From Mytilus californianus (taxonomy: Eukaryota): a DNA stretch of 64,000 nucleotides. The notes below the pieces were generated by a model. It was not told the origin of the DNA. It did not search any database and saw only the letters and a program-made list of their open reading frames with translations. The stretch is taken from positions 92,647,982 through 92,711,981 of the forward strand of contig NW_026262679.1 of assembly GCF_021869535.1 (NCBI RefSeq), written 5' to 3'. Positions 3,001 to 61,589 of this stretch are shown here, one piece after another (the stretch's first letter is position 1; every line of letters starts with the position of its first letter). The position numbers and the translations under genes were made by a program.

Positions 3001-4872
3001 TATGAAGAACAGCAATAAAATAAAAGGGTTTCTTTGTTGTATACCAAGTATATTTGACATTTTCCCTCTCTTTTTTTTTCAATTTTTCTGCTTCTTCAAC
3101 AGGGACGTCAGAAAGAAACAATCAATTAAACAACCTACTTCAGCGGGTAATACCCATCCTCACACTTCTACCAGTGAGCGTATCTTTTTTTCGTTTGGCT
3201 GCATCATAATTCCATGTGGACTGCTTCCAAAAAATAAAACCAGATAATCTCCAGAAAACTTCAGCATGACATCTCAACGTCCCCTTCTACAGGCATAGGC
3301 AGGAAGCCTGTAGCGGTCGTAGATCACTAGCGAACATCTTTGCCGCCCGTCCTCGCGAGTCAGCGACGGAGGCCATCTCAACATCGATGACTGTCGTCCC
3401 GTTTGGAGGTAACCAGCTAATTAAAGGAAACGCCACAAACAGCAAAATTACTTAATATTACTTACACTGCCTACATTTCTTCAGGTCTTTCTGACCGTCT
3501 CCTGGTTCTTCTGCCATCCTTGGTATAATTGGAAATAAAAGAAAGTCATTATTATTCAGAATCTACACAAATCACAACATTTTTATACACAATTTTTTTT
3601 AAACATTTTCTTATTGTTGAAGGACTTGTCTGTGAACTTGATTATGAAGAACAGCAATAAAATAAAAGGGTTTCTTTGTTGTATACCAAGTATATTTGAC
3701 ATTTTCCCTCTCTTTTTTTTTCAATTTTTCTGCTTCTTCAACAGGGACGTCAGAAAGAAACAATCAATTAAACAATCTACTTCAGCGGGTAATACCCATC
3801 CTCACACTTCTACCAGTGAGCGTATCTTTTTTTCGTTTGGCTGCATCATAATTCCATGTGGACTGCTTCCAAAAAATAAAACCAGATAATCTCCAGAAAA
3901 CTTCAGCATGACATCTCAACGTCCCCTTCTACAGGCATAGGCAGGAAGCCTGTAGCGGTCGTAGATCACTAGCGAACATCTTTGCCGCCCGTCCTCGCGA
4001 GTCAGCGACGGAGGCCATCTCAACATCGATGACTGTCGTCCCGTTTGGAGGTAACCAGCTAATTAAAGGAAACGCCACAAACAGCAAAATTACTTAATAT
4101 TACTTACACTGCCTACATTTCTTCAGGTCTTTCTGACCGTCTCCTGGTTCTTCTGCCATCCTTGGTATAATTGGAAATAAAAGAAAGTCATTATTATTCA
4201 GAATCTACACAAATCACAACATTTTTATACACAATTTTTTTTAAACATTTTCTTATTGTTGAAGGACTTGTCTGTGAACTTGATTATGAAGAACAGCAAT
4301 AAAATAAAAGGGTTTCTTTGTTGTATACCAAGTATATTTGACATTTTCCCTCTCTTTTTTTTTCAATTTTTCTGCTTCTTCAACAGGGACGTCAGAAAGA
4401 AACAATCAATTAAACAACCTACTTCAGCGGGTAATACCCATCCTCACACTTCTACCAGTGAGCGTATCTTTTTTTCGTTTGGCTGCATCATAATTCCATG
4501 TGGACTGCTTCCAAAAAATAAAACCAGATAATCTCCAGAAAACTTCAGCATGACATCTCAACGTCCCCTTCTACAGGCATAGGCAGGAAGCCTGTAGCGG
4601 TCGTAGATCACTAGCGAACATCTTTGCCGCCCGTCCTCGCGAGTCAGCGACGGAGGCCATCTCAACATCGATGACTGTCGTCCCGTTTGGAGGTAACCAG
4701 CTAATTAAAGGAAACGCCACAAACAGCAAAATTACTTAATATTACTTACACTGCCTACATTTCTTCAGGTCTTTCTGACCGTCTCCTGGTTCTTCTGCCA
4801 TCCTTGGTATAATTGGAAATAAAAGAAAGTCATTATTATTCAGAATCTACACAAATCACAACATTTTTATAC
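1..4872. repeat. Tandem satellite, 641-642 bp monomer, 7 full + 1 partial copies; array continues upstream of window
   Basis: Identical ORF-track entries recur every 641/642 bp (406, 1047, 1688, 2330, 2972, 3614, 4256). Monomer boundaries ('attccatgtggactgcttcc') fall at 1, 642, 1283, 1925, 2567, 3209, 3851, 4493. The array ends at ~4872, where 'ttatacacaatttttttt' is replaced by 'ttatacaaaatttgaag'. Two subvariants exist: copies 1-2 versus copies 3-8, which carry a 1-bp indel in the T-tract and the substitutions gttgtagaac/gtcgtagatc. Confidence 0.95.
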
Positions 4873-7179
4873 AAAATTTGAAGAAAAAAATCCACCATAT
4901 TAGATTATAGTTAAAGTTCTAGTTGGATATACACACTTTAGTTGAGTAGTCTTTGAGAAAAGATTGAGGATGAAACTTTTTTTAGTTCATTCAACATATT
5001 GAAAAACAAGTACGTGTGTAAAGGCAAACAGGAAGTAGGCGAACGAGAGATCTAAGACATGCTCACAGGTTACAACTAGTCACTGTTAAGCTGAAGACCA
5101 AATATGAAGTCATCCTGTTCAATACCTTTTGAGACTGATTATACCAAACAAGTAAAATTACTGGTATTGACATTTCTTATAAAACTTGTTACACATTTTT
5201 GAACAAATTTATTTTACAACATTTTGACAATGATTGGTTCTTTTTCAGTTGCTCTGGTACTTTTCAAATGTTTACCAGTGAACAAACAGATTACTGATTC
5301 AATAAAAAAAAGTTATACTGAAAAAAAATGTACTCTGCTTGCCTTTTCAATAATGAAAATTTTAAATGGACTAATTTTTTCCAATTTTTAAACGTGAAGA
5401 GAAGCAGAGTCTTTAAAATAAGACTTAAATGTACTCAGTATATGATTAGTACTTTTAAAAACATTCCAAATATTTGAATTAAAAAATATATCTCTCCTAA
5501 GTAAGTCTAACATTATTATCCTAAAGTTTGGCTTTAAAAATTGTTTGGTTCCTTAATTTATGCAAAACAATGAAAATCTCAGGAAAAAAATCTGTTTAGT
5601 TGCACAAACCCTTAAAGCCTTGCTATCAATATTAAAAAATTTAATGAAACCTTTAATAGATATTGAACTAAAATCTTGTTAACACTTAAAATATCTGTTT
5701 GAAACACTCATTTATACTCGGGATGTCTTCAGTCAAAGTCAGTCAAATGTTTTAATGAACAGAACAGTTCAATGCAACAAACAAACATCAAGTGATTTCA
5801 TCTTGCAACCTCATTCAAGAGGTGCTACCACTGGTGGGCATTCTTACTGTGGTCATTAGTGACATATCGTTTATATATTTTGTCAGAAGTCTTCGTGTAT
5901 CAGTCAAGGTGCAGTTTTTTGTATGGTAGTCTAAGAGAAGAAATGAGTATTATAAAAACCTTTTAAAATAAAAGTCCTTCTTTGAAAGTATGAATATAAG
6001 GACATTACATTATAAGCAAGATGTTATATGATGTAGGATACACTTTGGACATGTTAGTGCTCTAATAGGGGTCTCCATGCTGTTACTTATAATGAGTTGT
6101 GTTTTAACAATGACATCCTACATCATATACTTCATGATTTGGAAAAATGCAAACAAAATCTTTCATTGATGTAACCATGGCTAAGGATAATGCAATAATT
6201 TCAATTTCTGTTTTTCTTTTAGTAAGTTATTGAGAAGGAAATTAATGTCAAGGACTCACATAAAAGAAACAATCTGAGAAAGTGAATAATATTGTCTTGT
6301 AGATTTTTGTTTAAAAAAAAAAGAATTGAAAAAGGTATTCACATGACATGTGAGCTTCGTCAAATAGAAATCAACCTGATGCAAGTGCATGACTGTATAC
6401 ATGTGTACATGTACAAGACTGATTGATTTTGGAACATTCAAATACAAAATAAAAGATGACTTTTGGTCTGTATTGTAGAGTTCTTATACATGTACCAACT
6501 AAATTTTTACAGTTACAGACTTTAGTAGAGATTTTTTTAAGCCAAAATAAGTTAACAGATCGATGTATTGATAAATTATTCATTTGCATAAGGTTGATTT
6601 CTATCCAACGCAGCTCATGTATTATTATTCACTTCAATAAAAACAAATGAAAAAATGAAAAATAAAATTCAAATGAAAACGAAAAAAAACTTTAAAATAG
6701 TAGGAATAAATTTGACACAATTTAGAAATAAGATTGGGAGAGGCAACAATAATTTGCTTACTGTTAGACATGTAAGATTAGCATTACTGTATATTCAGAA
6801 ATTACTGCGAGGTTTTTATTTAATGAGAATAATGCAACTGAGTGAGTATTGCAATAATAAGCGGTTTTTCATGGAATAGCAATAATTAATCTTGCATTTT
6901 TGTCCATTCTTCAAAAATCACAATAATAAATGCACACGATATTTCTGAATTTACAGTATCTAGCTATACCAAAACTATCAATTGAAATAAGTTTCCTAAT
7001 TAATCTGGAAGAATCAATCTGACTGTTTATCACACTTAAATAAAAATAAACATCAGTTATCTCCCATTAATTAAATGTCAACTTGTAAAAATTTTTAAGT
7101 ACCTTAGGAACTGAAAAAGAAACAATCTAAAATATTATAGGCCAATGAAAAGGTTTCTAATTAGATACATATTATAATA

Positions 7180-7560
7180 ATGAGCTGCGCCATGACTGCA
7201 TGATACGTCCATCGGTTTTTCAACGAATAAAGTTCCATTCAAACTCCTCAATGTCATATCAGAAATTTATAAAAAACTAAAGGGAGCTTATTCTAATAGA
7301 TATGTTACCCAGTCACCAAAGTTTCACGAGATCTGCTCAAAGCATTTTTGAATTATTGTCTGAAAACTGGAAACTCCCCCATTTTTTATGAATAAAATCC
7401 CACAACTCGGAAACGTAACATCTAAAATTTATAAAAATCGAAAGGGAGCTTCAACAATAGATATAAACAATTCACCAAAGTTTCATCAGAATTGGTTAGA
7501 GAGATTTTGAGTAAATGTCTGTCATGTTGATGACGGAAAGATGGACAACAGGATATAAGA
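7180..7560 (+). mobile_element. pearl/Helentron-like nonautonomous element (internal ~140-bp subrepeats, GACGG-type tail)
   Basis: The 5' end 'gagctgcgccatgactgcatgatacg' is almost identical to the start of the element at 27450. It contains two ~140-bp subrepeats ('...aaaatttataaaaatcgaaagggagct...caccaaagtttca...') and ends 'gttgatgacggaaagatggacaacagg'. Confidence 0.5.
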
Positions 7561-8344: not shown

Positions 8345-8470
8345 TAATATAAAAATAAGATGTGGTATGATTGCCAATGAGACAACTCTCCACAAGAGAC
8401 CAAATGACACAGACATTAACAACTATAGGTCACCGTACAGCCTTCAACAATGAGTAAAACCCATACTGCA
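8345..8470 (-). repeat. Solo 3'-terminal fragment of a Penelope-like element (same family as element at 23290-27180)
   Basis: The minus strand reads '...gtatgggttttactcattgttgaaggctgtacggtgacc...gagttgtctcattggcaatcataccacatcttatttttat'. This matches the 3' end of element B (27035-27180). Confidence 0.6.
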
Positions 8471-10984: not shown

Positions 10985-11085
10985 ACAGACCTTAAGAAAA
11001 ATAAGAAGATGTGGTATTATTGTCAATATTAGAAAACAATCCACCAGAGACTCAAAAACAAGGATGTAAGCAAACACCACATAGT
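10985..11085 (-). repeat. Diverged PLE 3'-terminal fragment
   Basis: 'aagatgtggtattattgtcaatattagaaaacaatccaccagagactcaaaaacaaggatgtaagcaaacacca' shares the 'agatgtggtat...caat' head with the other tail fragments. Confidence 0.35.
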
Positions 11086-13984: not shown

Positions 13985-14335
13985 ATACTTCTTTCCTGAT
14001 GTGGCATGAAATGCCAATAAGACAACTATCCAACACAGTCCCTTACTGAGGCGGATTTAAGCAACTATAGGTCACCGAACGGTCTTCAATAATGAGCAAA
14101 ACCAATACCGTGTAGTCAGTTATAAAATGTCCCGATTTTACAAAACTTTTGTGAAACATATCAGGCAAATGAGGGGAAAAAAAGAGTTAATTGATGACAA
14201 ACCGAAAAACAGACAATACCGTGTAGTCAGTTATAAAATGTCCCGACATTACAAAAACAAAATGTGAAACATATCAAACGAGGAAAAAAAAAAGTTAATT
14301 GATGACAAAACGAAAAACTGATGTAACAATTAAAC
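13985..14335 (-). repeat. PLE 3'-terminal fragment followed by ~118-bp tandem duplication
   Basis: 13985-14110 matches the tail family ('gatgtggcatgaaatgccaataagacaactatcc...caactataggtcaccgaacggtcttcaataatgagcaaaacc'). 'accaataccgtgtagtcagttataaaatgtcccga...gttaattgatgacaaa(a/c)cgaaaaac' is repeated at 14100-14218 and 14219-14335. Confidence 0.5.
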
Positions 14336-14349
14336 AGCAAACAATGACA

Positions 14350-14450
14350 ACCTTCCAGACTTGCGACAAGCACAAAAAAGTCATGAAGATTTGGCATGGT
14401 TAAACATGTTTGTGAGCACTCAACCTCCCTCTAACTTGGAAAAATGGTGT
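14350..14450 (-). repeat. Fragment carrying the PLE 3'-UTR hairpin motif
   Basis: 'gacttgcgacaagcacaaaaaagtcatgaagatttggcatggttaaacatgtttgtgagcactcaacctccctc' is a diverged copy of 'gacttgggacaggcgcaaaaatgcggcggggttaaacatgtttatgagatctcaaccctccc' (15321-15385). Confidence 0.45.
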
Positions 14451-15065
14451 ATCCACCAGAGCGCCAATAAAAAAAGTATACAAACATTGTGAAACGATTT
14501 TTTAGTCAGTTTAAAGCACCGACCATTCATTATTTTTAGGAGTTGATTCTTACTTTTGTTTTAGGTAATTTTATATTAGAGTCGAGAACAATTGTTTGTC
14601 CTAAGACTCCCCCTCACATAAAAAAACACGAATTTTGTTTGTCTTTTTTTGTTTTTATCGGATGAGTCGTTATTGAGAAAGTAGGTAATTAAGTAACATC
14701 TGATAAGAAGGTATCCCAGTTAGCTGTTTTTCTGCTTGAAACTAATCTTTCAAAGTCACCTTGCTCTATCACCGAATTTCTGCTTACCATGAGCAACATG
14801 ACGTGTGCCACTAGACGAGCAGGATCTATTAACCCTTTCAGAGCACCTGATATTACACCCAGTTTTGTTGGGTTCGTGTTGCTCAGTCGTTTGATGAAGT
14901 TTACTAGAGTTGTTTGCCTTTTAGTCGTCTTTCGTTCTTTGTCATGGCCTTGTCAGTTTTCTTCCACTTATGAATTTTGAATATCCCTTGGAAATATCCG
15001 CCTCTTTTTTGGTTTATGTAACTTGTATCTCTTTTCTTCTGTCTCATCTGGATTTTTTTTTTACA

Positions 15066-18000
15066 TAATAAAATTGAGAATGGAAATGGGGAATGTGTCA
15101 AAGAGACAACAACCCGACCACAGAACAGACAACAGCAGAAGGCCACCAACAGGTCTTCAATGCAGCGAGAAATTCCCGCACCCGGAGGCGTCCTTCAGCT
15201 GGCCCCTAAACAAATATATATACTAGTTCAGTGATAATGAACGTCATACTAAACTCCAAATTGTACACAAGAAACTAAAATTAAAAATAATACAAGACTA
15301 ACAAAGGCTAGAGGCTCCTGACTTGGGACAGGCGCAAAAATGCGGCGGGGTTAAACATGTTTATGAGATCTCAACCCTCCCCCTATACCTCTAGCCAATG
15401 TAGAAAAGTAAACGCATAACAATACGCACATTAAAATTCAGTTCAAGAGAAGTCCGAGTCTGATGTCAGAAGATGTAACCAAAGAAAATAAACAAAATGA
15501 CAATAATACATAAATAACAACAGACTACTAGCAGTTAACTGACATGCCAGCTCCAGACTTCAATTAAACTGATTGAAAGATTATGTCTTCATCATATGAA
15601 TATCAGGCACAATCCTTCCCGTTAGGGGTTTAGTATCATACCATCATAACATATATGAGAAGAACATAACCCGTGTCATGCCAACAACTGGTTTTTAAAT
15701 AAATGTGTTTAGTGCAGATGCAAAGACCTTATAAGTGAATCAATATCAACGCCAAAATATGCAATCTTTAATGACCTGACAACAGTATCGTAACTATATC
15801 CCTTCTTAATAAGTCTATTTAAAGGTTTTGTTAGTTTCAGAGGTGAATACTGACATTTTTGTGCTTTATAAAGAATATTTCCATAAAAAATTGGATGTGA
15901 AATACCTGAACGTATAAGAAGTCTGCATGTTGAGCTATATTTACGAATGATGTCCTTATACCGATGATAAAATTTAGTAAATGTTTTGACTAGTTTGTGA
16001 TATCGAAAACCCTGGTGTTATAATTTTTCAGTAATACATACATTTCTCTCGTTAAAATCTAAAACATTGTTACATACACGAGCGAATCGTACAAGTTGAG
16101 ATATATAAACACCGTAAGATGGTGACAAGGGAACGTCACCATCTAAAAATGGATAATTAACGATAGGAAATGAAAAATCATCTCTTTTATCATATATTTT
16201 AGTATTAAGCTTTCCGTTAATGATATAGATATCAAGATCGAGGAAAGGGCAGTGGTCATTGTTAGTATTAGCTTTATTTAAAGTAAGTTCAACAGGATAA
16301 ATTTCTTTAGTATACATACTGAAGTCGTCATTATTGAGAGCCAAAATATCATCCAAATATCTAAAAGTATTATTAAATTTGTGTATCAGATGTTGTTTCG
16401 ATGGGTCTTTACTGATTTTTGTCATAAATTGTAACTCATAGCAATACAAAAAAAGGTCCGCAATAAGTGGTGCACAGTTAGTCCCCATTGGAATTCCGAT
16501 AACCTGACGATATACGGAATCTCCAAAGCGAACAAAAATGTTATCTAGTAAAAATTCAAGGGCATATATAGTATCAAAGCATGTCCAATTGACATAGTTT
16601 TTTTGTTTATTGCTACTAAAAAATGACCTAAAAGAGTTTGAACATATATATTCACATTCTGACTTTTTAAATGCCCATTTAATTAGGTGTGTGAATTTTT
16701 TCTTAATGAGAATGTGAGGCAATGTGGTATATAGGGTAGAAAAATCAAAACTTTGAACAGATTCAAAATCACCAATATATGCATGCAATTTATCAAGTAC
16801 TTCCAACGAGTTTTTGACACTCCAAAAGTAATTAATTCCACTATTTTCGAAGGCCTTATTTGAACAATTTATTATCAGGTTTTTGATTGTACCAAGTGTA
16901 CTGGTAAGAAGAATAGACAATTTAGTAGTGGAACAATGGCTTGAAGACGAAATGAATCTATATTTGTAAGGTGTTTTGTGTAGCTTCGGAAGCCAATACA
17001 TAGTTGGGACTTTCATTGTATTTGGTTCTGCTTGTAAAGCGGTAGCTAAAAGTTTATGTTTGTTACAGATGTCGTTTTCTGAAAATGGAGTCAGTTGGAA
17101 TGTTGGTGAATTGGTGATTTCTTTTTTCAGAACCTCAATGTAAAATTTACGTCAAACAATAATAATATTATTAGCAGCTTTATCGGCCGGGACAAAAACA
17201 AATTCCTTGGCTAGTTCTTTTAGTTTATGTTTGATACGAGAAATAGGTTTATTGTGGTTATTGTTAAGAGTAAAATGTTCTTTAAAATGTTGAATACGTA
17301 TATCAACTATGTTCATTACTGATTTAAAAAAAGAGTCCAAAGATTTTTTGTCAGCTTTTTCCCGTTTTATCCATTTCAAACAGTAAGTATGGAGTGAGTC
17401 GTGGATGATATTACGACACTCATTCCAATTAATAATTGACGGGGGACGATATTTAGGTCCTTTACTGAGGAATGATTTTAACTCTCGGTCTTGAACGATG
17501 TTAAGATCTCCTGTTATAACATGGGAAATGGGTCCATAAATGTATTCGGAATTACTGCAATTACATGAAGTAGGTGTATTTTCACTGATATTAACATCTT
17601 TACACAATTGGCTATAATTAAACACAAATTTCCGGGTAGATTTCTTGTAAATATAACAAATAAGAGGGAGCTCAGTATTATCAAAATATCCCGGAATTTG
17701 TTCTTTAACAGAATGGTCGTTAAAAATACCGGCAATATTTACAAAATCAAAACCTTTATTGACATACTTTATTTTAATAAACTGTTTTTTATGATCTTCA
17801 GGGCGATCAATTTTGGGAAACAGTTTAGAATAACAATATGCCATTATAATTTGAACGATTTCATACTTAGGACTGCTATATGAAATTGTGTTGCAATCCT
17901 CTAAAATTTTATTTAACTTATTAACCGGTAATGAACAGAGCTTTGTTAACAGATAATGTCTGCCGTTGTTTTTTGAAATAGAAATTAGGTCCGAAATATT

Positions 18001-19087
18001 GGTATGATTGGTCCGAAATTTTCTTTGATTGCGATTTTTTCTACGACCATGAGAACGGTTTTTACGAACAGTTTTAGAAACTATATCCAAAATGTTAACA
18101 GAATCGGTTCTTGATATATTACCAATTCCCATGATATTATCATTAAGACCGAGAGGGTAGACAGTCTGTAATTTTTTAATCCAATTTAATTCAATTATTT
18201 TCCGCGATCGTACAAACTTTGAATGAGATTCACCAGGCTGCTTATTTACTACTTCTAAAGGTTGAACTGCTAAATATTTAATAGGATGATTGTGCTTCTT
18301 AAGGTGTTGATAAATGATACTTTTGAATTTATTGGGTCTTTTAAAACGATACAGATGTTCTTGAGTGCGTTTAGATAAATATCGTCCAGTTTCACCTACG
18401 TACTGAATACCGCATCCCGGTTTGTTTCATGTGAGTAAATAAATTATACTGTTTGTTTTTCAAGTTATATCAGTTTCAAAATTTAAAGAAAATGTGCGAC
18501 CATTAAACGTGGACCTTACCGTATTGTTGGTGGAAAGACGGGGACATGTAAGTCATTTTTTGGCATGACACTTATCGATAGAAGGGTAACCACGATTTTT
18601 ATTGTTAAAAATGTTAGCGATGGTAGTATTTTTAGATAAGCGATTTTGAAGATTGAGACGTGTAGATACCCTTTGAACGAGTTTAGTATTTAATATTTTT
18701 CCATTTCTAAGCTTCATATTTGTTTTTTGTTTGTGAATTATATTAGAAAGGAGCAAAGACTGGCGTCCAGAATATGAACCAGCATACAATGAATTAAATT
18801 ATGTAAAAATGATAAATCTGTTCGGCTAAAGATGTCAAACGCTATCCGTATTAATTACCCGAAAAAGAAAGGGTATATTAGGGTAGCGACTGACGTCTGA
18901 CTAAATAGTAGAATGGGGCTGAATATTGAAATACTACTTTTTGATAAATATTCCTAAAGTAATGAACTAGAGAAGTTCTCGCTCGGACACACACTCCATA
19001 ATCTAGTATATTATAAGAGCATAAACCTGAAGCACGGGGAGGCACTCTACTGTCTCCACACGGCACTAAAGACAAACTCTGTAAAAA
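15066..19087 (-). mobile_element. Full-length Penelope-like retroelement (copy A1), permuted domain order: N-terminal GIY-YIG EN - CxC linker - RT (Naiad-like)
   Basis: It is ~4.0 kb. On the minus strand it holds a ~300-nt 5'UTR, one long reading frame from 18789 to 16018 and a ~640-nt 3'UTR. It abuts the 3' end of the truncated copy A2 at 19087/19088 and is ~99% identical to A2 over 3 kb. The 3' flank is a T/A homopolymer (15050-15060). Confidence 0.85.
16018..18789 (-). CDS. PLE polyprotein: GIY-YIG endonuclease + CxC linker + reverse transcriptase; single frame containing 4 in-frame TGA codons (candidate selenocysteine codons); truncated in this copy by a TTA>TAA change at 16018-16020
   Basis: ORF-track entries 18553..18789, 17152..18132 and 16018..17016 are all in the same frame, with every start coordinate divisible by 3. 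They are separated only by TGA at 18555-18553, 18462-18460, 18429-18427 and 17154-17152; no TAA or TAG occurs in 923 codons. The GIY-YIG domain reads 'IIYLLT*NKPGCGIQYVGETGRYLSKRTQEH...IIELNWIKKLQTVYPLGLND' (18456-18130). The linker carries the CxC motif 'TSCNCS', then 'VPADKAANNIIIV*RKFY'. The RT reads 'YWLPKLHK...YRFISS', 'YRQVIGIPMGTNCAPLIADLFL' and 'FRYLDDILAL'. The first start-like codon is TTG at 18789; the first in-frame ATG is at 18717. Confidence 0.8.
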
Positions 19088-22000
19088 ATAAAATTGAGAA
19101 TGGAAATGGGGAATGTGTCAAAGAGACAACAACCCGACCACAGAACAGACAACAGCAGAAGGCCACCAACAGGTCTTCAATGCAGCGAGAAATTCCCGCA
19201 CCCGGAGGCGTCCTTCAGCTGGCCCCTAAACAAATATATATACTAGTTCAGTGATAATGAACGTCATACTAAACTCCAAATTGTACACAAGAAACTAAAA
19301 TTAAAAATAATACAAGACTAACAAAGGCTAGAGGCTCCTGACTTGGGACAGGCGCAAAAATGCGGCGGGGTTAAACATGTTTATGAGATCTCAACCCTCC
19401 CCCTATACCTCTAGCCAATGTAGAAAAGTAAACGCATAACAATACGCACATTAAAATTCAGTTCAAGAGAAGTCCGAGTCTGATGTCAGAAGATGTAACC
19501 AAAGAAAATAAACAAAATGACAATAATACATAAATAACAACAGACTACTAGCAGTTAACTGACATGCCAGCTCCAGACTTCAATTAAACTGATTGAAAGA
19601 TTATGTCTTCATCATATGAATATCAGGCACAATCCTTCCCGTTAGGGGTTTAGTATCATACCATCATAACATATATGAGAAGAACATAACCCGTGTCATG
19701 CCAACAACTGGTTTTTAAATAAATGTGTTTAGTGCAGATGCAAAGACCTTATAAGTGAATCAATATCAACGCCAAAATATGCAATCTTTAATGACCTGAC
19801 AACAGTATCGTAACTATATCCCTTCTTAATAAGTCTATTTAAAGGTTTTGTTAGTTTCAGAGGTGAATACTGACATTTTTGTGCTTTATAAAGAATATTT
19901 CCATAAAAAATTGGATGTGAAATACCTGAACGTATAAGAAGTCTGCATGTTGAGCTATATTTACGAATGATGTCCTTATACCGATGATAAAATTTAGTAA
20001 ATGTTTTGACTAGTTTGTGATATCGAAAACCCTGGTGTAATAATTTTTCAGTAATACATACATTTCTCTCGTTAAAATCTAAAACATTGTTACATACACG
20101 AGCGAATCGTACAAGTTGAGATATATAAACACCGTAAGATGGTGACAAGGGAACGTCACCATCTAAAAATGGATAATTAACGATAGGAAATGAAAAATCA
20201 TCTCTTTTATCATATATTTTAGTATAAAGCTTTCCGTTAATGATATAGATATCAAGATCGAGGAAAGGGCAGTGGTCATTGTTAGTATTAGCTTTATTTA
20301 AAGTAAGTTCAACAGGATAAATTTCTTTAGTATACATACTGAAGTCGTCATTATTGAGAGCCAAAATATCATCCAAATATCTAAAAGTATTATTAAATTT
20401 GTGTATCAGATGTTGTTTCGATGGGTCTTTACTGATTTTTGTCATAAATTGTAACTCATAGCAATACAAAAAAAGGTCCGCAATAAGTGGTGCACAGTTA
20501 GTCCCCATTGGAATTCCGATAACCTGACGATATACGGAATCTCCAAAGCGAACAAAAATGTTATCTAGTAAAAATTCAAGGGCATATATAGTATCAAAGC
20601 ATGTCCAATTGACATAGTTTTTTTGTTTATTGCTACTAAAAAATGACCTAAAAGAGTTTGAACATATATATTCACATTCTGACTTTTTAAATGCCCATTT
20701 AATTAGGTGTGTGAATTTTTTCTTAATGAGAATGTGAGGCAATGTGGTATATAGGGTAGAAAAATCAAAACTTTGAACAGATTCAAAATCACCAATATAT
20801 GCATGCAATTTATCAAGTACTTCCAACGAGTTTTTGACACTCCAAAAGTAATTAATTCCACTATTTTCGAAGGCCTTATTTGAACAATTTATTATCAGGT
20901 TTTTGATTGTACCAAGTGTACTGGTAAGAAGAATAGACAATTTAGTAGTGGAACAATGGCTTGAAGACGAAATGAATCTATATTTGTAAGGTGTTTTGTG
21001 TAGCTTCGGAAGCCAATACATAGTTGGGACTTTCATTGTATTTGGTTCTGCTTGTAAAGCGGTAGCTAAAAGTTTATGTTTGTTACAGATGTCGTTTTCT
21101 GAAAATGGAGTCAGTTGGAATGTTGGTGAATTGGTGATTTCTTTTTTCAGAACCTCAATGTAAAATTTACGTCAAACAATAATAATATTATTAGCAGCTT
21201 TATCGGCCGGGACAAAAACAAATTCCTTGGCTAGTTCTTTTAGTTTATGTTTGATACGAGAAATAGGTTTATTGTGGTTATTGTTAAGAGTAAAATGTTC
21301 TTTAAAATGTTGAATACGTATATCAACTATGTTCATTACTGATTTAAAAAAAGAGTCCAAAGATTTTTTGTTAGCTTTTTCCCGTTTTATCCATTTCAAA
21401 CAGTAAGTATGGAGTGAGTCGTGGATGATATTACGACACTCATTCCAATTAATAATTGACGGGGGACGATATTTAGGTCCTTTACTGAGGAATGATTTTA
21501 ACTCTCGGTCTTGAACGATGTTAAGATCTCCTGTTATAACATGGGAAATGGGTCCATAAATGTATTCGGAATTACTGCAATTACATGAAGTAGGTGTATT
21601 TTCACTGATATTAACATCTTTACACAATTGGCTATAATTAAACACAAATTTCCGGGTAGATTTCTTGTAAATATAACAAATAAGAGGGAGCTCAGTATTA
21701 TCAAAATATCCCGGAATTTGTTCTTTAACAGAATGGTCGTTAAAAATACCGGCAATATTTACAAAATCAAAACCTTTATTGACATACTTTATTTTAATAA
21801 ACTGTTTTTTATGATCTTCAGGGCGATCAATTTTGGGAAACAGTTTAGAATAACAATATGCCATTATAATTTGAACGATTTCATACTTAGGACTGCTATA
21901 TGAAATTGTGTTGCAATCCTCTAAAATTTTATTTAACTTATTAACCGGTAATGAACAGAGCTTTGTTAACAGATAATGTCTGCCGTTGTTTTTTGAAATA

Positions 22001-22117
22001 GAAATTAGGTCCGAAATATTGGTATGATTGGTCCGAAATTTTCTTTGATTGCGATTTTTTCTACGACCATGAGAACGGTTTTTACGAACAGTTTTAGAAA
22101 CTATATCCAAAATGTTA
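19088..22117 (-). mobile_element. 5'-truncated PLE copy (A2) directly upstream, in element orientation, of full-length A1: pseudo-LTR tandem arrangement
   Basis: Homology to A1 (offset ~4020) runs from the element 3' end at 19088 up to 22117. There the sequence diverges ('aacagaat|aagactag' versus A1 'aacagaat|cggttcttga'), so the EN domain and the first three TGA sites are missing. Confidence 0.85.
19729..22110 (-). CDS. Linker + RT portion of PLE polyprotein (copy A2), continuous frame with one in-frame TGA (21174-21172); intact RT C-terminus ending at TAA 19731-19729
   Basis: ORFs 21172..22110 and 19729..21036 share one frame. The 435-aa RT ORF keeps 'ITEKLLHQGFRYHKL...' where A1 has a stop. 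Confidence 0.75.
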
Positions 22118-23346
22118 ACAGAATAAGACTAGATATTAATTGATTAAAATTTAAATCTTTATTTTGTCATGATCCATGTGAAGAGATTTTTATTCATGTT
22201 TCTCAGGTTTGGAAACTTTGGAAACTTTTGAAATAAATTTTATAAGAGTTATAATCTTGGTGAATTATAAAGACTACAATCTAGAACAAATTCAATTTAG
22301 TTATGCGACCAATGTTAACATATAGCTTTCACATGTGGACAGCACCAAGCTAAAGTTTTCCCGAGACACTATTTAGTTTGCGTTCTTGTCTCCCAGTTTC
22401 TATCCTGTGGTTACTAAACCTAAATTAAGTACAAATTCTTCGTTTGTAAACATTGATAATTTTTAAGTGACTCTCAAAATTGAATAAATTTTGGTTAGTA
22501 GATTGTTCCATGAACATGTTTACACAGGTAGTAAACACTCACTCACTAGCTATACAGTAAATATGGTGTCCGGTTGAGATTGTGTTTTTTTTGGAGTGAA
22601 TCGTTCCACTTTTTCGAAAGCAGACCTTGTTTTTTCGAGTGAAATTACATATGATAAAATCAATTTACTTTTATTCCGCAAGTATATCACTTTTATTCAA
22701 TACTTGCCAACTTATTTTTAATAATATTCAAGTTTTGAACATTAACTACGCATAATTGTCCCCTATTTCATTTAAAAATACCGAAAATAGTACTAAAATG
22801 GTAAGAAAATTAAATCATTGTCAATTACAAAAAGATAACAAGACACATGCTGTAAATTGTTAATTTTTTAAATCATAGTTTGATGGTCCGACCTTAGCAA
22901 CTTTTGAATAACTGCAATAAAAGCGCTGTCTCTTTAATATATTGGTAATTCTCTAGTATTTGATGATATTTTTGTCTGGTGAACTTCCTCTTTTAAATGG
23001 ATTAGATATCCAGAAAGATATCCATTGTTTGAGCAACAATAAAAAAAATAACCGCTGGATAGCTATCCAATGGATAGACTGTTTATCCATTGGATAGGCT
23101 ATCCAGTGGATAACTTTATCCAACGTTTTGAGCAACTCAGTCCAGGACACCATCTGGTAAGAATATATGGTCATTTTCATGAGTGTAATGGCATACGAAT
23201 AAATGTTATAAAGCTTACACCAAAGGAATTTTAAGGTTAAGGTTATTTCTTGTTTTTATAACAATATTAACGAAGATATCAGAAGAGACTATTTGGTTTT
23301 CAAGAAATTGCTAATAGGTGTTAAAGAGTTATTTGAAAAAAGGTAA

Positions 23347-24210
23347 ATGCCAATTAGTAAATTACATAATAGTTATAACGAGTGTGATACTATATCATTT
23401 TTCAGTCCAAAATATGAGTGTACACGCATTATTACAGCTTTTTGTCACCATAGACTGTTTCCTCAAACTGACAAACCTGAAGATCATAAAAAGTATTTTC
23501 TAAAAATAAAATACATTAACAGATGTATTGATTTCATTAATTTGTCTAGTATTTTTCATGACTCTACTGTTCAAAACTTTATACCTCCATATCTTGATAA
23601 CATTGAGCCACCTATAATTTCTTATTCGTATAAAAAAAAGAACAGTAGAAGTTTAAATTTTAATTATACGTCAGTTACATCAGACGTCAGTATAGAAAAT
23701 AATGCTCCTTCAACATGAGACTGTGAAACATCGACTGAGTTTAGATATGATCCCTATGGCCATGTAATTACAGGGGACCTCAACATAGTTCAAGACCGAG
23801 AGGTTATAAACTTTCTGAAAAAAGGACCAAAATATCGTCCACCGTCGAAAATAAATTGGAAAGAGTGTCGTCAGGTTATTATAGATGCTCTTTCATCCTA
23901 CTGTAAAAAAAATGGTGTAAACGGGAGAAATATGACAAAAGGTCACTTGAATCCTATTTAAATAAATGTCTGAATATTGTTGATATTCGCATACCACGTT
24001 TCGAAAATAATTTAGAAATAAATAAAAGAAAGTAATACGCCCATTTCTAGGATTAAATTCAAGTACTCTTAAAGCGTTTTGTGTTCGTACCGGCCGACAA
24101 AGCAGCCAACACTGTGATGATGGTATGACGTAAATACTACACAGAAGTCCTTAAGAATGAAATTATACATTTAGCTACATAAAATTAAATAAATAAATAA
24201 TCTTTATTTC
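23347..24210 (+). pseudogene. Element B linker-domain remnant; TGA at 23716-23718 aligns with first Cys of the CxC motif of A1, TGA at 24126-24128 aligns with the A1 TGA at 17154-17152
   Basis: B reads '...NNAPST*DCETSTEFRYDPYGHVITGDL' where A1 reads '...ENTPTSCNCSNSEYIYGPISHVITGDL'. B reads 'PADKAANTVMMV*RKYYTEVL' where A1 reads 'PADKAANNIIIV*RKFYIEVL'. The flanking nucleotides have diverged but the TGA is retained. A frameshift lies between the two blocks. Confidence 0.6.
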
Positions 24211-25175
24211 AAGAGGATAATCCCATTAGTGAAAACTAATCTTCCTGAGAGTCCTCAAAATAATAATAACATATTTATAAAGTGCATTCAATATTATAAT
24301 GATATATGCACAATATACAATTTTATATAGATATTAATGAAAAAGCATATTAATTTGCACAATTTATGAAAACATTTGTAACATTTTGTTTTAAAAGATA
24401 CAAGTGTATTACTCATCTTTATTTCATTTGGTAAACTGTTCCATATTTGAGAACCAGAATATATAAATGTTTTCTTAAAAAAAAAATGTTTTTGGCTTTC
24501 GAAGATGTAATAGCTTTTCATCAGCTGAACGTGAATTATAATTTTGATTATCAGTAAAATGAATGTTTTCTTGTAAATAGTTAGGAACCATATCCTTTAA
24601 TGATTTAAATACAAGTATTGCCTTTTGATATTGAATTCGTTTTTCCACATTTAACCATTTTAAACTATTAAACAATACACTGGAAGATGTCATTATGTCA
24701 GCTTCTACTATAACCATAGCAGATTTCTTTAATAACTTATTAAGTTTGTTTATTCCACTTTCATATCAACAACCCCATATATTGCAACAATAATCAAACA
24801 ATGGCAGATTATAAGCATTAGAATAAATGATACGTTTATGCATAGGTAAATACTTTCTTATCTTTTGTAATAAGTTGATTCTATTTGATATTGTACATGA
24901 CATTTTATCTATTTGCTCATTCCAATTTAGGTTTTTGTCGATACATAAACCAAGAAGTTTTTCACAATCTACATTCTCTATTTGTTCATCTGAAATATTG
25001 ATATCTAAACTGTTCCCAGTTGAATAAAGCCTTTCTTTTGAACCAATTATCGTTGATTTACATTTTTTGGCATTTAGTTAAATATTAAGTATTAGTTCAA
25101 GGCCGTACGCTCCACAGAGAGTCATATAGTAAATAATCATGTCACTACCACAGCTCAGCTTAAGGCCTCCTTTGA
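24185..25175 (-). mobile_element. CR1/L2-like LINE 3' fragment (RT C-terminal region + conserved C-terminal tail) nested inside PLE element B
   Basis: The minus-strand translation reads '...VDCEKLLGLCIDKNLNWNEQIDKMSCTISNRINLLQKIRKYLPMHKRIIYSNAYNLPLFDYCCNIWG...', then '...SVLFNSLKWLNVEKRIQYQKAILVFKSLKDMVPNYLQENI...R...KTFIYSGSQIWNSLPNEIKMSNTLVSFKTKCYKCF'. It splits B between 'RKYYTEVLKNEI' (24170) and 'MYWLPKLH' (25190). Confidence 0.65.
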
Positions 25176-25179
25176 ACAT

Positions 25180-26370
25180 TTGAAGGTCCCCACTATGTAT
25201 TGGTTACCTAAACTACACCAAAAAACCCCGTAAAATATCGTTTCATCTCGGCCTCTAGTAAGTGTTCTACTACTAATCTTTCGGTGCTTTTAACGAGTTC
25301 CTTAACTACTATCAAAGAACTTATCATTCATTTTTGTAAAAAAAAAATATGAAAATAGTGGAATTAACCATTTTTGGAGTGTAAAAAATACTTTGGATGT
25401 TTTAAAAAAATTACGCGCATTTGAAGGTCCTTTTGATTCGGTGGACAGTTTTGACTTGTCCACTCTTTATACTACACTTCCACTCAATCTTATTAAACAA
25501 AATTTTCCTATCTATTTTAATGGTCGTTTGATAAATCTGATTGCAAAATTATTTGCTGCAAATCATATAAAGCCTTTTTCTCAATTGAGAAAGGTAAATA
25601 TGCTAGATATACTTACTGGAGGTATGATTAGATGATTAAAGCCGTAAATTTTCTCCCTGACAACATTTATGTACGTTTCGGCAATACAGTTTATCGACAG
25701 GTTGTATGTATGTTCCTATACTGTTATGAATCACAGTTTATGGCAAAACTCAGCAAAGAACAGTCTAAATTCTATTTAATTGATAATTAATTCTTGATGA
25801 TATTGTTTTCGTTAAATAATCAAGAATTCTCTAAATATGCTGCTGAAATTTACCCAAAGGAACTTACTTTAAATAAACCAAATATTTACAGTGATAATTG
25901 TCCTTTCATAGATTTAGATATTTCAGTGTTACACCAGAAACTCTACACAAAAATTGGGGATGATTTTTCTTTTCCTAGTGTTAATTTTCATTTTTTGGAC
26001 GATGATGTTCCTTTGGCACCGTCTTACGGTGTTTATATATCCAAACTCGTTCGTTAAGCCCGTGTCTGTAGTGACGTTTTGGATTTCAATGAGCTTAATC
26101 TATGTATTATTAGAAAATTATTGTGTCAATGATTTCGTTACCACGCATTAATTAAAACCTTTACTAAATTCTTCCATAGATACAAAGATTTGGTTTGCAA
26201 GTTTGGCTGTACCTGTAGAAAACTTATTTCAAACGGAATAGCACATCCTAAATTTCACGGTGATGTTGTTAACCGAGCCCGGAAATTTAGATACGATCGG
26301 GTAAACATATCAATCCTTTATATAAACTTATTCTGAAAGGTCACCAATTCAACACTGTAATAAATCTTTG
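25180..26370 (+). pseudogene. Element B reverse-transcriptase remnant (frameshifted, internal deletions)
   Basis: See the element B entry. ORF-track fragments 25393..25635 and 25794..26057 are homologous to the A1/A2 RT. Confidence 0.6.
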
Positions 26371-27449
26371 AATATTGTTTTCATTGGTATGAATATTGAT
26401 TTTGTAATCAGTAAATTAAAACCATACTAAATATGATTGTTATAAATATATGTTATTTCACGGTACTACAATCTGTCGATATCTATATTTTAGCATTGCA
26501 CAATGTCATGTTTTTCTCTGACTGTTAATGACGTCTTTACACTAAATCCATTGGATGTTAGATGTATACTGATTGATATTTTAGTCTTAAATACACGATT
26601 TGTTTTGTTAGTTGTTATTGGCCTTGAACTAGCTGTCAGTAACTACAAGTACTATCAGATCTGTACTTAATGTCTTTTTGTTGTTAGGGATGAGGGATGG
26701 ATACATACCCTGCCACGTCCGGTCCGTGATTTTGTATGATGTTTTTCTGCTTTGTATCGATCTGATGAGTTAAGCCTTTTTCGACAGATTTTTATAGTTT
26801 GTTCTTAAGTTGTGCTGTTACAACACTGTCCCAGTTTAGGGGAGGGTTGAGCGCTCACAAACATGTTTAATCCCTCCACATTCTTTATGTGCCTGTCCCA
26901 AGTCAGGAGCCTGTAGTTCAGAGGATGTCGTTGGTTCATTGTCTGTCATATTTTTTTTTCGTAAATTATTTTGTTATAAATTAGGCCTTTATACAGTTTT
27001 CTCAGTGGAATTGTTTCATATTTGTCATGTCGGGGCCTTATATGGCCGACTATATGGTATGGGTTTTTCTCATTGTTGAAGGCCGTACGGTTGCCCACAA
27101 TTGCTTACATTCACTTTATTTGAACTTTGGTGGATAGTTGTCTCATTGGCAATCATACCACATCTCCTTATTTTTATATTCATCATTTAAAAAACATCCG
27201 TCTTTTTTATGATAATGTTCCTCTTCGGGAGGATTTACTTATAGTACAATGAAAGGATTAAGATAATTATTAATGGAATCAAACTTATGTGTTGTCTTTT
27301 CCTATATGTGAGCAAATTGAATATTTCTTTTATCAAATATTATCTTTTTAATACTTGGAGGTTCACATTGCAAGTAACCTCATGTCGATTAAAGCTTGAC
27401 ATGTTTTCAATTGTCGAAGATCGTATGTATCCTGATATCTAAATAAAGA

Positions 27450-27990
27450 GCTGCGCCATGAACGCATGATACGCCCGTCGCTTTTTCAAAGAATAAAGTT
27501 CCATAACTCCTCAATGTCATATCAGAAATTTATAAAAAAAAACTAAAGGGATGTTATTTTAATAGATATAAAACAGTCACCAAAGTTTTATGAAAACTGC
27601 TCAAAGCACTTTTGAGTTATTGTCCGAAAACTGGAAAATCCCATTTTTTATGAATAAAACCCCATAACTCAGAATCTAAAATTTATAAAAATCGAAAGGG
27701 AGCTGACGTCACTAGATACATGTATAAACAATTCACCAAAGTTTCACGAAAATTGCTTAAAGCATTTTTGAGTTATTGTCCAAAAACTGGAACCCCCCTT
27801 TTTTAATGAATAAAACCCCATAACTCAGAATCTAAAATTTATAAAAATCGAAAGGGAGCTCATGTCAATAGAGATAAACAATCCACCAAAGTTTCATGCA
27901 AATTGGTTAAAGCGTTTTTGAGTTACTGTCCGACATGTTGACGATGGACGGATGGACAACGGTATACCATAATACGTCCCGTAAACGGGC
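27450..27990 (+). mobile_element. pearl/Helentron-like nonautonomous element (three ~140-bp internal subrepeats, GACGG tail, terminal hairpin)
   Basis: It starts 'gagctgcgccatgaacgcatgatacgcccgtcg', like the element at 7180. It carries three subrepeats ('aaaatttataaaaatcgaaagggagct...caccaaagttt(c/t)a...') and ends 'gttgacgatggacggatggacaacgg...gtcccgtaaacgggcat' (hairpin). Confidence 0.55.
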
Positions 27991-40249: not shown

Positions 40250-40564
40250 GGTAAGAAAACTCAATGAAACAATATACAGACAACGGTAAGAAAACTCAAT
40301 GAAACAATATACAGACAACGGTAAGTAAACTCAATGAAACAATATACAGACAACGGTAAGAAAACTCAATGAAACAATATACAGACAACGGTAAGAAAAC
40401 TCAATGAAACAATATACAGACAACGGTAAGAAAACTCAATGAAACAATATACAGACAACGGTAAGAAAACTCAATGAAACAATATACAGACAACGGTAAA
40501 AAAACTCAATGAAACAATATACAGACAACGGTAAGAAAACTCAATGAAACAATATACAGACAAT
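40250..40564. repeat. 35-bp minisatellite, ~9 units (ggtaagaaaactcaatgaaacaatatacagacaac)n
   Basis: 'ggtaag' recurs at 40250, 40285, 40320 and so on up to 40530. It lies in the intron immediately upstream, in gene orientation, of CTLD exon 40227-40089. Confidence 0.9.
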
Positions 40565-48529: not shown

Positions 48530-48870
48530 AAACTCTACATTGGCTAGAGGTATAGGGAGAGGGTTGAGATCTCACAAAACATGTTTAACCCCTCCGCATT
48601 TTTGCGCCTGTCCCAAGTCAGGAGCCTCTGGCCTTTGTTAGTGTTGTATGTTTTTTTAATTTAAGTTCATTTATATGTTTTGGAGTTTAGTGTGACGTCC
48701 ATTTTCATTGAACTAGTACACATTGTTTAGGGCCCAGCGGAAGCCCGCCTCCGGGTGCGGGATTTTCTCGCTGTTTTGAAGACCCATTGGTGGCCTTCGG
48801 CTGTTTTCTGCTCTTTGGTCGGGTTGTTGTCTCTTTGACACATTCCCCATTTCCATTCTCAAATTTATCT
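48530..48870 (+). repeat. 3'-terminal fragment (~330 bp) of a PLE related to A1/A2
   Basis: The segment reads 'ggctagaggtatagggagagggttgagatctcacaaaacatgtttaacccctccgcatttttgcgcctgtcccaagtcaggagcctctgg', then 'gggcccagcggaagcccgcctccgggtgcgggattttctcgctg...gggttgttgtctctttgacacattccccatttccattctcaaatttat'. This is collinear with the A1 3'UTR in RNA orientation. Confidence 0.7.
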
Positions 48871-59559: not shown

Positions 59560-60300
59560 TGACCCCATGGACACAGATGATGCCCCCACTTGCATATATA
59601 CATTATAAAGGGACATAACTCAAGAACAATAAAAGTGACGCTACCCAAATTTGTACTTGATCTGAGTTTTAAGGTAATAAGTATTGTGTATAGGTTTCAT
59701 AATGTTTGGTTGGGGCAAACTTAAGTTACAGAACGGAAACTAAAAATTTTGCAATTTTTCCATTTATAAAAGGGCATAACTCGATAATGATTAAAGTGAC
59801 GATACCAAAATTCAACTTGATCTGTGTTTTGTGGTAAAAAGCATTGTGTATAAGTTTCATAACATTTGGTTGAGGCAAACTAAAATTAGAGAACGGCAAC
59901 TAAAAATTTTGCAATTTTTCCATTTATGAAGGGCATAACTCTAGAACAGTTAGAGTGATGCTACCAAAATTCAATCTTGATCTGTATTTTGTGGTAATAA
60001 GCATTGTGTATAAGTTTCATAACATTTGGTTAAGGCAAACTTAAGTTAGAGCATGGAAACTAAAAATTTTGCAATTTTTCCATTTATAAAGGGGCATAAC
60101 TATAGAACAGTTAAAGTGACGCCACCAAAATTCAAACTTGACCTGTGTTTTGTGTTAATTAGCATTGTGTGTAAGTTTCTTAACATTTGGTTGAGGCAAA
60201 CTCAAGTTAGAGAACAGAAACCGATTTTGGGACTACAGTCGGACAAGGATAAAACTTAATGCCCCCTCCGCTACGGCTCGGGCATAATTACCCATTGCCT
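59560..60300 (+). mobile_element. pearl/Helentron-like nonautonomous element (~146-bp subrepeats x4.5)
   Basis: '...aaagggcataactc(a/t)a(g/t)aa...aaagtgacg(c/a)taccaaaattcaa(c/t)ttgatctg...tttggtt(g/a)(g/a)ggcaaact(t/a)aa(g/a)tta(c/g)agaa(c/t)gg(a/c)aactaaaaattttgcaatttttccatttat' repeats four times. It ends 'ggactacagtcggacaaggataaaacttaatgccccctccgctacggctcgggcat' (hairpin). Confidence 0.55.
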
Positions 60301-61329: not shown

Positions 61330-61420
61330 CAGTGAGTAGTTGCTTACATTTTTGTTCTTTGGTCTTATGATGATAGTTGTCTCACTGGCAATCATACCAC
61401 ATTTCCTTATTTTTATATTG
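61330..61420 (+). repeat. PLE 3'-terminal fragment (family B tail)
   Basis: 'gatgatagttgtctcactggcaatcataccacatttccttatttttatattg'. Confidence 0.5.
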
Positions 61421-61589
61421 AAGTGATTTGATGGTCAATATCTAAATTGTTTATCAAATACATTCTACATGCGCAGCAAATTATTGACATGGCTAAACAT
61501 ACATATTTTTCTCCATATTTACAAACCCAAATCTCAAATTTGTATACTCATGCAGAGAAGCACAAACACATCCGTTGGATACTTATAGT

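Follow-up and report, generated by a model that had tools for sequence, protein, structure and literature searches.

Structure of the locus

The window, a stretch of 64,000 nucleotides of Mytilus californianus DNA, contained two copies of one element lying head to tail on the minus strand, a full-length unit (A1) and a 5′-truncated copy upstream of it (A2). The coordinates of both copies and of their features are given in Table 1. Self-BLAST of the tandem region, a check put forward in the preliminary description, was run and gave a single direct repeat, in which 15067-18104 equals 19087-22124 over 3038 bp with 3 mismatches and 0 gaps (99.90% identity, period 4020, E = 0). The copies had been described as about 99% identical over 3 kb; the near-identity holds, but the figure is 99.9% by self-BLAST. 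The 3′ terminus ...CTCAATTTTAT was common to five independent solo 3′ ends, whose flanks are unrelated and which were found in the window and at a Mytilus edulis locus. As these solo ends fix the 3′ terminus and the BLAST repeat runs one ambiguous T further, the junction was set at 19087/19088, exactly where the preliminary description had placed it. The two strings quoted there for the junction are both minus-strand, '...ccattctcaattttat' being the reverse complement of 19088-19103 and 'tttttacagagtttgtc...' that of 19071-19087. The extent proposed for the whole structure (15066-22117) agreed with our result in its layout, and only the 5′ end of A2 had to be moved, to 22124, which is 7 nt further out.

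Table 1. Positions of the tandem copies, their coding and RNA features, and a separate short copy in the window.
Feature	Position	Strand	Description
A1, full-length unit	15068..19087	(-)	4020 nt; 5′ start TTTTTACAGAG at 19087, 3′ terminus ...CTCAATTTTAT at 15068; from self-BLAST period and solo 3′ ends
A2, upstream 5′-truncated copy (pseudo-LTR)	19088..22124	(-)	3037 nt, unit positions 984-4020; 99.9% identical to 15068-18104; truncation point from A1/A2 comparison
Head-to-tail junction	19087..19088	(-)	A2 3′ terminus ...TTTTAT (19088) abuts A1 5′ start TTTTTACAGAG (19087)
A1 ORF	15709..18717	(-)	ATG at 18717, 1002 codons, stop TAA 15711-15709; reads through four TGA and one interrupting TAA
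N-terminal CX4UxxC motif and GIY-YIG endonuclease	18118..18573	(-)	A1 only; from motifs and alignment to P0207
In-frame TGA 1, second Cys of CX4CxxC	18553..18555	(-)	Cys in P0207; TGA in L003, L004, L021, and M. edulis copy
In-frame TGA 2, Cys ahead of GIY motif	18460..18462	(-)	Cys in P0207; relatives compared
In-frame TGA 3, first Cys of CCHH finger inside GIY-YIG	18427..18429	(-)	Cys in P0207; relatives compared
In-frame TGA 4, Cys 8 aa past DKA	17152..17154	(-)	A2 counterpart 21172-21174; Cys in L021 and P0207
Reverse transcriptase and C-terminal region of A1	15712..17151	(-)	A2 counterpart 19732-21171 uninterrupted
TAA nonsense codon private to A1	16018..16020	(-)	TTA (Leu) in A2 (20038-20040) and all relatives
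SECIS-like hairpin, A1 3′ UTR	15593..15657	(-)	54 nt past stop; A2 copy 19613-19677
Short independent 5′-truncated copy, 3′ end only	48534..48868	(+)	88% identical; same 3′ terminus ...CTCAAATTTAT

A1 and A2 differed at 3 positions over 3037 nt, without indels. The first 983 nt of the unit are missing from A2, which begins at codon 205/206, directly past the endonuclease domain. The element DNA at the locus amounts to 1.76 head-to-tail units and has the layout R-S-R, with lengths of 3037 + 983 + 3037 nt.

When the flanks were locally aligned to one another and to the unit, the scores did not exceed those of shuffles, and neither a target-site duplication nor a 30-40 bp 'tail' was found at the outer ends. 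A TTTTACA match past copy3 was not significant, as 347 of 1000 shuffles scored equally well. The poly-T/A tract noticed earlier at the 3′ flank of A1 exists as an A10 run, read as T10 on the plus strand, whose first base lies 5 nt beyond the terminus; it is a short homopolymer and not a microsatellite, and a (TA)n microsatellite target was absent from the AT-rich flanks. Naiads often have an inverted 5′-truncated neighbour copy, a 30-40 bp tail, and a (TA)n target, although these are not required (PMC8557442). At this locus, the tail, the (TA)n target, and the adjacent inverted copy were all lacking. An inverted Naiad of another family (about 50% amino acid identity) lies 1.2 kb away at 23347-26312 (+).

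Open reading frame and age of the copies

The same 1002-codon ORF was uninterrupted in the relatives L003, L004, and L021, with dN/dS of 0.07-0.11 over all 1002 codons. All 3 differences between A1 and A2 were private derived states, namely the TAA of A1 and two missense changes in A2. The dS value was 0.001 for A1/A2 and 0.11-0.28 between subfamilies. The preliminary description had given the copies complementary lesions, and these were observed. The endonuclease domain, all four TGA codons, and a TAA in the RT (16020-16018) were present in A1; A2 lacked the endonuclease and the first three TGA (at 18555, 18462, and 18429 in A1) and kept only the fourth (21174). As a result, neither copy now codes for the complete protein. 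Recent transposition, claimed on the same occasion, is supported at the sequence level by the 3 private differences in 3037 nt and by the otherwise intact ORF. Gene conversion between neighbouring copies could lower the apparent age of the pair.

Protein domains and assignment

The N-terminal region aligned with the protein P0207 at E 8e-80, and the matching stretch of P0207 is Pfam GIY-YIG (PF01541, 25.5 bits against a cut-off of 22.6). The GIY-YIG assignment runs via P0207, the window protein itself being below Pfam significance, and Pfam scans of the full ORF and of both halves gave nothing significant. The N-terminal motifs were CHAKKULTC at residue 50 and IIYLLTU...PGC...YVGETG at residues 91-111, with the RT downstream. 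Between them lay a KR-rich block (RKNRSHGRRKNRNQRK), the CxC motif as SCNCS at residue 385, GxKY as GPKY at 420, and DKA as PADKAAN at 512. In the alignment labelled A2, C290, G323, K325, and D415-K416-A417 were nearly invariant.

Sequence searches of the PDB (phmmer and two profile searches) detected no RT and no GIY-YIG, so a fold search was needed. The AlphaFold2 model of residues 523-1002, built on the A2 version, had a mean pLDDT of 88.8. In the Foldseek comparison with the PDB, TERTs took the first 11 ranks (E 5e-10 to 6e-8), and DRT2 and group II intron RTs came next. The YLDD motif was located at residue 787. A further mark of the Naiad clade is the insertion-in-fingers domain, by which RT motifs A and B are set some 20 residues further apart. 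The spacing from FDFSTLYTT to GIPMGTNCAP was 84 residues, a value taken from the window protein alone.

Rfam searches showed no hammerhead ribozyme family at E ≤ 1 in 14500-22600 or in L002-L004, L021, and L022, and no match at gathering thresholds in the whole window. TRF and ARAGORN runs gave nothing relevant. The unit of 4020 nt is within the published Naiad range of 3.4-4.4 kb (PMC8557442). On its N-terminal GIY-YIG, its CxC/DKA motifs, its telomerase-like predicted RT fold, and the lack of a hammerhead, the element is assigned to the Naiad clade of Penelope-like elements (PLEs). The preliminary description had recognised a PLE in a partial-tandem pseudo-LTR arrangement, which agrees with the Naiad identity and with a 5′-truncated copy whose 3′ terminus abuts the full copy at its 5′ start.

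Features of a putative selenoprotein

All four in-frame TGA codons aligned to Cys in P0207, and TGA was kept in L003, L004, and the M. edulis copy. L021 showed a Sec/Cys swap at the position of TGA 4. UGA at conserved cysteines in an ORF under purifying selection, the mark of selenoprotein Naiads, was found here. The hairpin in the 3′ UTR scored 31.7 bits (E 0.003) with Rfam SECIS_1, which is under the gathering score of 35, and had the AUGA...AAA...GA core. SECIS-like elements were observed at the same place in L002, L003, L004, L021, and L022 with 28-33 bits. From its codons and hairpin, the protein of the element appears to be made as a selenoprotein.

Recurrence of the junction

The join TAT|TTTTTACAGAG was identical in four outside contigs, L002, L003, L004, and L021, the last of which represents a sister family only 74% identical to the window element. 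In L021, the full copy runs out into unique flank. L003 and L004 had exact terminal overlaps of 77 nt and 93 nt, respectively, as expected of an assembled tandem. A 3′ end stood immediately before every 5′ start seen (5/5). In the window family and the sister family alike, the join recurs with an unchanged sequence. A misjoin at 19087 had been named as a danger to this interpretation. The same join, at the true termini of the family, recurs in independent contigs, so it is not a misjoin confined to this assembly, nor an arbitrary duplication of genomic DNA. Within the 5′ UTR, the first 100 nt past the junction showed 84% conservation against 57-67% for the remainder, and formed the best-conserved non-coding block.

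Three metagenome contigs covered the whole unit at 94-96% identity, and a chromosome of M. edulis carried a 92% copy with all four TGA kept. Solo 3′ fragments occurred in the window and in L023. L024 ends inside the element and is uninformative on an upstream copy. The pseudo-LTR layout is frequent and not obligatory, because the copy of a distant Naiad family in L025 has no pseudo-LTR. Pattern matches to the 3′ terminus in viral_contigs (n = 4) were rejected, having only a 21-mer in common with the unit and nothing else, and those in bacterial/archaeal genome_contigs (n = 11) were taken as chance.

Formation of the tandem

The locus very probably holds a single young Naiad insertion, laid down as 1.76 head-to-tail units, of an element with an N-terminal GIY-YIG nickase, a telomerase-like RT, and an apparent selenoprotein. 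The GIY-YIG nickase would open the target, and the RT would prime cDNA at the 3′ end of the RNA, by target-primed reverse transcription. Synthesis would copy one whole unit and then run into a second, reached either by an end-to-end jump of the RT to another RNA or on a longer-than-unit transcript of a tandem master. An early stop in the second unit would leave the 5′-truncated upstream copy. The TAA of A1 and the two missense changes of A2 may have been gained after insertion or through RT errors. By analogy with Penelope and Chlamys-3, the 3′ part of the upstream copy, standing in front of the full copy, could supply promoter sequence. Template jumping is one possible route to the tandem, and the published literature has no established mechanism for tandem formation in any PLE.

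Such an insertion was weighed against two separate events, in which a full-length copy came first and the nickase, by self-targeting of a T-rich site, then placed a 5′-truncated copy precisely at its 5′ boundary. The junction is T-rich (TTTTAT|TTTTT), PLE endonucleases with sequence preferences are known from the published literature, and strict self-targeting would also give a recurrent junction. However, single-nucleotide precision would be needed in several families, and no bases were gained or lost at any junction seen. A1 and A2 are moreover equally young, with 1-2 private changes each, as co-insertion predicts, and no footprint or target duplication was observed around A2, which makes two events very unlikely. 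An assembly artefact (haplotypes or paralogous copies stitched in tandem) or a host-mediated segmental duplication catching a transposon is scarcely credible. Such structures do trouble assemblies (Craig et al., PMC8557442), and the 3 differences could be allelic. However, the layout is R-S-R and not B-B, and a simple tandem duplication cannot yield R-S-R; the inner boundary matches the element termini to the base, and the same join was found in four contigs of unrelated assemblies.

The invariance of the junction between families 26% diverged and the conservation of the 100 nt past it would also suit a circular or multimeric intermediate, that is, a circularised RNA reverse-transcribed by a rolling circle, as proposed for the PLE-related retrozymes. 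Metagenome contigs that close on themselves point the same way, and a bioRxiv report (10.64898/2026.07.22.740005) links retrozymes with a proposed rolling-circle mechanism to PLE pseudo-LTRs. We consider this intermediate highly improbable, as any tandem gives circular-looking contigs in de Bruijn assembly and the searches detected no self-cleaving ribozyme, hammerhead or other, that would yield monomers for circularisation. Naiads are likewise reported without hammerheads (PMC8557442).

The single insertion of a tandem can itself be read in two ways. Untemplated bases are often added when other retroelements jump end to end. As the junction is constant across 26% divergence, an inherited, templated junction fits no less well than a new jump in each insertion event. 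It is conceivable, if unlikely, that the head-to-tail join is an inherited, functional part of the element and not a by-product remade with every insertion. The grounds for this are that the junction is invariant at 74% identity, that the next 100 nt are the best-conserved non-coding sequence, and that no 5′ start was seen without a 3′ end ahead of it. An inherited join would fit longer-than-unit or circular templates and promoter or initiation signals existing only across joined units, and the tandem would then be the true replicative unit of hammerhead-less PLEs.

Comparison with known systems

Craig et al. 2021 (PMC8557442) count partial tandems forming pseudo-LTRs among the hallmarks of Naiads as of other PLEs. 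The arrangement is thus already published, and the locus adds a clean young example of it rather than a new kind of structure, so the structure as such matters little. Its value lies in being very young and base-exact, with both termini defined, a clean junction, no target duplication, and each mutation assignable to one copy. Taken with the junction that stays unchanged in sister families, the locus offers a concrete test case for the building of PLE tandems.

The direct repeat around unique sequence resembles an LTR retrotransposon and could be mistaken for LTR-internal-LTR. This assignment was rejected. The 'LTR' of 3037 nt would hold most of the RT ORF and the 'internal' part only 983 nt, and the upstream repeat is a truncated copy. 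A target-site duplication is absent, and the telomerase-like RT is paired with a GIY-YIG nickase and not with an integrase. Non-LTR retrozymes, according to the report cited above, likewise occur as head-to-tail arrays, normally multimeric and related in sequence to PLE pseudo-LTRs. They are short, non-coding, and hammerhead-bearing, whereas the window element has a 1002-codon ORF (autonomous) and no hammerhead.

In Penelope of Drosophila virilis and in Chlamys-3_cRei, a partial copy likewise stands ahead of the full copy, and the pseudo-LTR holds the transcription start (PMC8557442). Both have a 5′-UTR intron overlapping an internal promoter. The promoter role that the preliminary description proposed for the pseudo-LTR of the window element is suggested by analogy with them. 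The endonuclease of Penelope is C-terminal and its pseudo-LTR carries hammerhead motifs, unlike the window element.

The closest likeness was with the clam Naiads Naiad_Mmer and Naiad_Scon, compared by their published description, which have the same order of an N-terminal GIY-YIG with CCHH, a KR-rich block, CxC, DKA, and RT. Like the window family, they have a unit of about 4 kb and no hammerhead, are often truncated at the 5′ end, and form pseudo-LTR partial tandems (PMC8557442). Three UGA codons of the window family, at the Cys ahead of GIY, at the first Cys of CCHH, and at the Cys 8 aa past DKA, reproduced the clam pattern exactly. Their SECIS, to which the SECIS-like hairpin of the window element would correspond, is also in the 3′ UTR, but lies 1-21 nt past the stop, compared with 54 nt here. 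The window family differs further in its fourth UGA, at the second Cys of CX4CxxC, a position published as Sec only in a spider family (PMC8557442), and in its host, which is a mussel. Selenoprotein Naiads are known from clams and spiders (Craig et al. 2021, PMC8557442), and a mussel Naiad family with four putative selenocysteines now joins them.

Repeat geometry and the junction

The GC content of the window was about 29-40%, mostly 30-35% (2-kb bins); it is AT-rich with many repeats, in keeping with an invertebrate genome. Self-comparison of 14000-24000 recovered the near-identical copies of the preliminary description as a single dominant direct repeat, 15067-18104 against 19087-22124 (3038 bp, 3 mismatches, 0 gaps, period 4020). 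The strings quoted in that description are minus-strand reads of 19071-19103; therefore, the element lies on the minus strand, with the truncated copy, A2, before the complete copy, A1. Their divergence sets in directly 5' of ATTCTGTTAAC. Unrelated tandem arrays were also observed in the window.

Coordinates of the features in the window
Feature	Position	Strand	Description
A2	22124->19088	-	higher-coordinate copy, upstream; starts at unit position 984
A1	19087->15068	-	lower-coordinate copy, downstream, complete
A1 ORF	ATG 18717 to TAA 15711	-	1002 codons, one frame
A1 change	16020-16018		TTA->TAA, nonsense; derived, private to A1
A2 change	21372		Asp->Asn; derived, private to A2
A2 change	20226		Asn->Tyr; derived, private to A2
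Unit positions 1-100	19087-18988	-	84%-identical block against L021
Third fragment	48534-48868	+	88% identical
Diverged Naiad copy	23347-26312	+	3' end to ~27183; ~0.9 kb insertion at ~24180-25095
Short fragment	13998-14484	-	similar to 26478-27183
Short fragments	8346-8466, 10997-11073, 61340-62199		similar to 26478-27183
Array	40250-40563		35-nt x 9
Array	59603-60221		160-nt x 3.9
Array	27577-27933		156-nt x 2.3; recurs at 7176-7555, 79-82% identical

A head-to-tail join is present in any tandem, and the key question is whether it lies at the true ends of the element; here it does. The third fragment ends at ...CTCAAATTTAT, followed by unrelated DNA. A 33-kb Mytilus edulis chromosome stretch (L023) holds four more 3' ends, at ...CTCAATTTTAT or ...TTTTGT, with flanks that are all different, and A1 itself ends at ...CTCAATTTTAT, followed by TATGTAAAAAAAAAATCC. 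These shared ends with unrelated flanks fix the 3' terminus to the base, and therefore the A2 terminus at 19088 and the junction at 19087/19088, where the preliminary description had placed it. The BLAST boundary, 19086/19087, differs from the true junction through one coincidental T.

Recurrence of the join

Scanning metagenome contigs with 24 nt of the unit 5' start gave three contigs (L002, L003, and L004; 4.09-4.18 kb, 94-96% identical to the unit). In all three the family 3' end precedes the 5' start through an identical join, ...CTCAATTTTAT directly followed by TTTTTACAGAGTTTG. The two ends of L003 overlap exactly by 77 nt and those of L004 by 93 nt, which marks a tandem put together from short reads. 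L002 and L004 form one subfamily (99.5-99.9% identical to each other), and L003 is distinct. The sister-family contig L021, only 74% identical, opens with ~55 nt from the very 3' end of an upstream copy; its join, ...CCTAT followed by TTTTTACAGAG, leads into a full 4029-nt unit, which again ends at ...CCTAT before unique flank. A 3' end thus precedes each of the five 5' starts visible (window, L002, L003, L004, and L021), with no bases added or missing at the join in any lineage seen, over 26% divergence. No upstream repeat was found in L025, a copy of a more distant Naiad family (58% amino acid identity), so the layout is common, not universal.

Lesions and age

Four relatives served to polarise the three differences between A1 and A2. 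The complementary lesions described earlier held: the TAA interrupting A1 is private to it, and A2 lacks the whole endonuclease because it starts at codon 205/206. Neither copy encodes a full protein. Recent transposition was likewise supported, as A1-A2 divergence is 0.1% against a synonymous divergence of 0.11-0.28 between subfamilies, making the insertion ~100x younger than the subfamily splits, although conversion between adjacent copies would likewise hold them close in sequence. Errors by the RT during insertion may account for part of these differences.

Element identity and UGA codons

The A1 ORF is interrupted only by four TGA (18555, 18462, 18429, and 17154) and one TAA (16020). Its protein shows, in order, CHAKKULTC, ITUKTNSIIYLLTUNKPGCGIQYVGETG (GIY-YIG with CCHH finger), a KR-rich block, SCNCS (CxC), GPKY, PADKAANNIIIVU (DKA), and RT motifs including YLDD, with U at each in-frame TGA. 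The window protein itself gave no significant Pfam or PDB sequence match. Over its first 526 residues it aligns (E 8e-80) with the protein P0207, whose matching stretch passes the Pfam GIY-YIG cut-off; at each of the four U positions P0207 carries Cys. When the RT part was modelled with AlphaFold2 (pLDDT 88.8), the 11 best PDB matches of the model were all telomerase RTs. No hammerhead ribozyme was detected in the element or in relatives. This set of features is what defines the Naiad clade among Penelope-like elements (PLEs) (Craig et al. 2021, PMC8557442).

The in-frame UGA codons are not lesions. The 1002-codon ORFs of L003, L004, and L021 are intact with four TGA each; L021 differs in having Cys at one Sec position and TGA in place of another conserved Cys, the first of CxC. 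A decayed, 92%-identical Mytilus edulis copy (L023 16349-19514, chromosome OY782957.1) kept all four, and whole-ORF dN/dS was 0.07-0.11. A SECIS-like hairpin 54 nt past the stop scored 31.7 bits, just below the Rfam cut-off of 35, and recurs at the same place in five of five relatives, L002, L003, L004, L021, and L022, at 28-33 bits, each below that cut-off.

Neighbouring Naiad sequences

The diverged Naiad copy (~50% amino acid identity to A1) is without the endonuclease region and lies head-to-head with A2, 1.2 kb apart. The arrangement is similar to the 'inverted copy' layout known from PLEs. However, the copy belongs to a different family and so is probably an independent older insertion. 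The short fragments similar to its 3' end are consistent with published descriptions of bivalve genomes, where 5'-truncated Naiad 3' ends are very abundant. The Mytilus edulis gene model P0215, 'sulfotransferase 1A1-like' (L023 10001-23275), has 55 residues 84% identical to the element's GIY-YIG domain; a Naiad fragment within the gene span was apparently taken into the model as coding sequence.

Origin of the tandem

The target may be nicked by the GIY-YIG domain, after which target-primed reverse transcription would start at the RNA 3' end, run on into a second unit and stop there prematurely. According to Craig et al. 2021 (PMC8557442), the step that forms the tandem in Naiads is not understood. 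When the window family is compared with L021 (74% identical), non-coding sequence is best conserved in the first 100 nt past the join (84%, versus 57-67% for the remaining 5' UTR), and a 34-nt block near the unit 3' end (GGTTGTTGTCTCTTTGACACATTCCCCATTTCCA) is 100% conserved. Both are candidate cis-acting sequences flanking the join on either side. The exact join and the conserved first 100 nt fit a junction inherited via longer-than-unit templates and a precise end-to-end jump equally well.

An assembly artefact is unlikely to have made the tandem, as the same join is present in unrelated assemblies. A simple tandem duplication is ruled out because it cannot yield the R-S-R structure (3037 + 983 + 3037 nt). 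No target duplication of the insertion was found, and this absence, with the repeat content and enzymes, excludes an LTR element. Sequential self-targeted insertion of A2 next to A1 and rolling-circle synthesis are possible, each with low probability.

Comparison with known elements

Naiad insertions are often partial tandems, a truncated copy before a full copy forming a pseudo-LTR (Craig et al. 2021, PMC8557442), so the preliminary description was right to call the arrangement characteristic of PLEs. In Penelope and Chlamys-3_cRei, but not in Naiads, the pseudo-LTR has a documented promoter role. The locus is a known arrangement, correctly and carefully observed, in a new family member and not a new kind of element. 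The element is of the selenoprotein type (Sec-Naiads), for which two clams and two spiders were the only hosts reported (Craig et al. 2021). The clam Naiads share the UGA pattern at three of the four positions; the fourth UGA, at the second Cys of CX4CxxC, was reported only for a spider family (PMC8557442). A four-UGA Naiad in a mussel-like host, with Sec at the second Cys of this finger, widens that picture.
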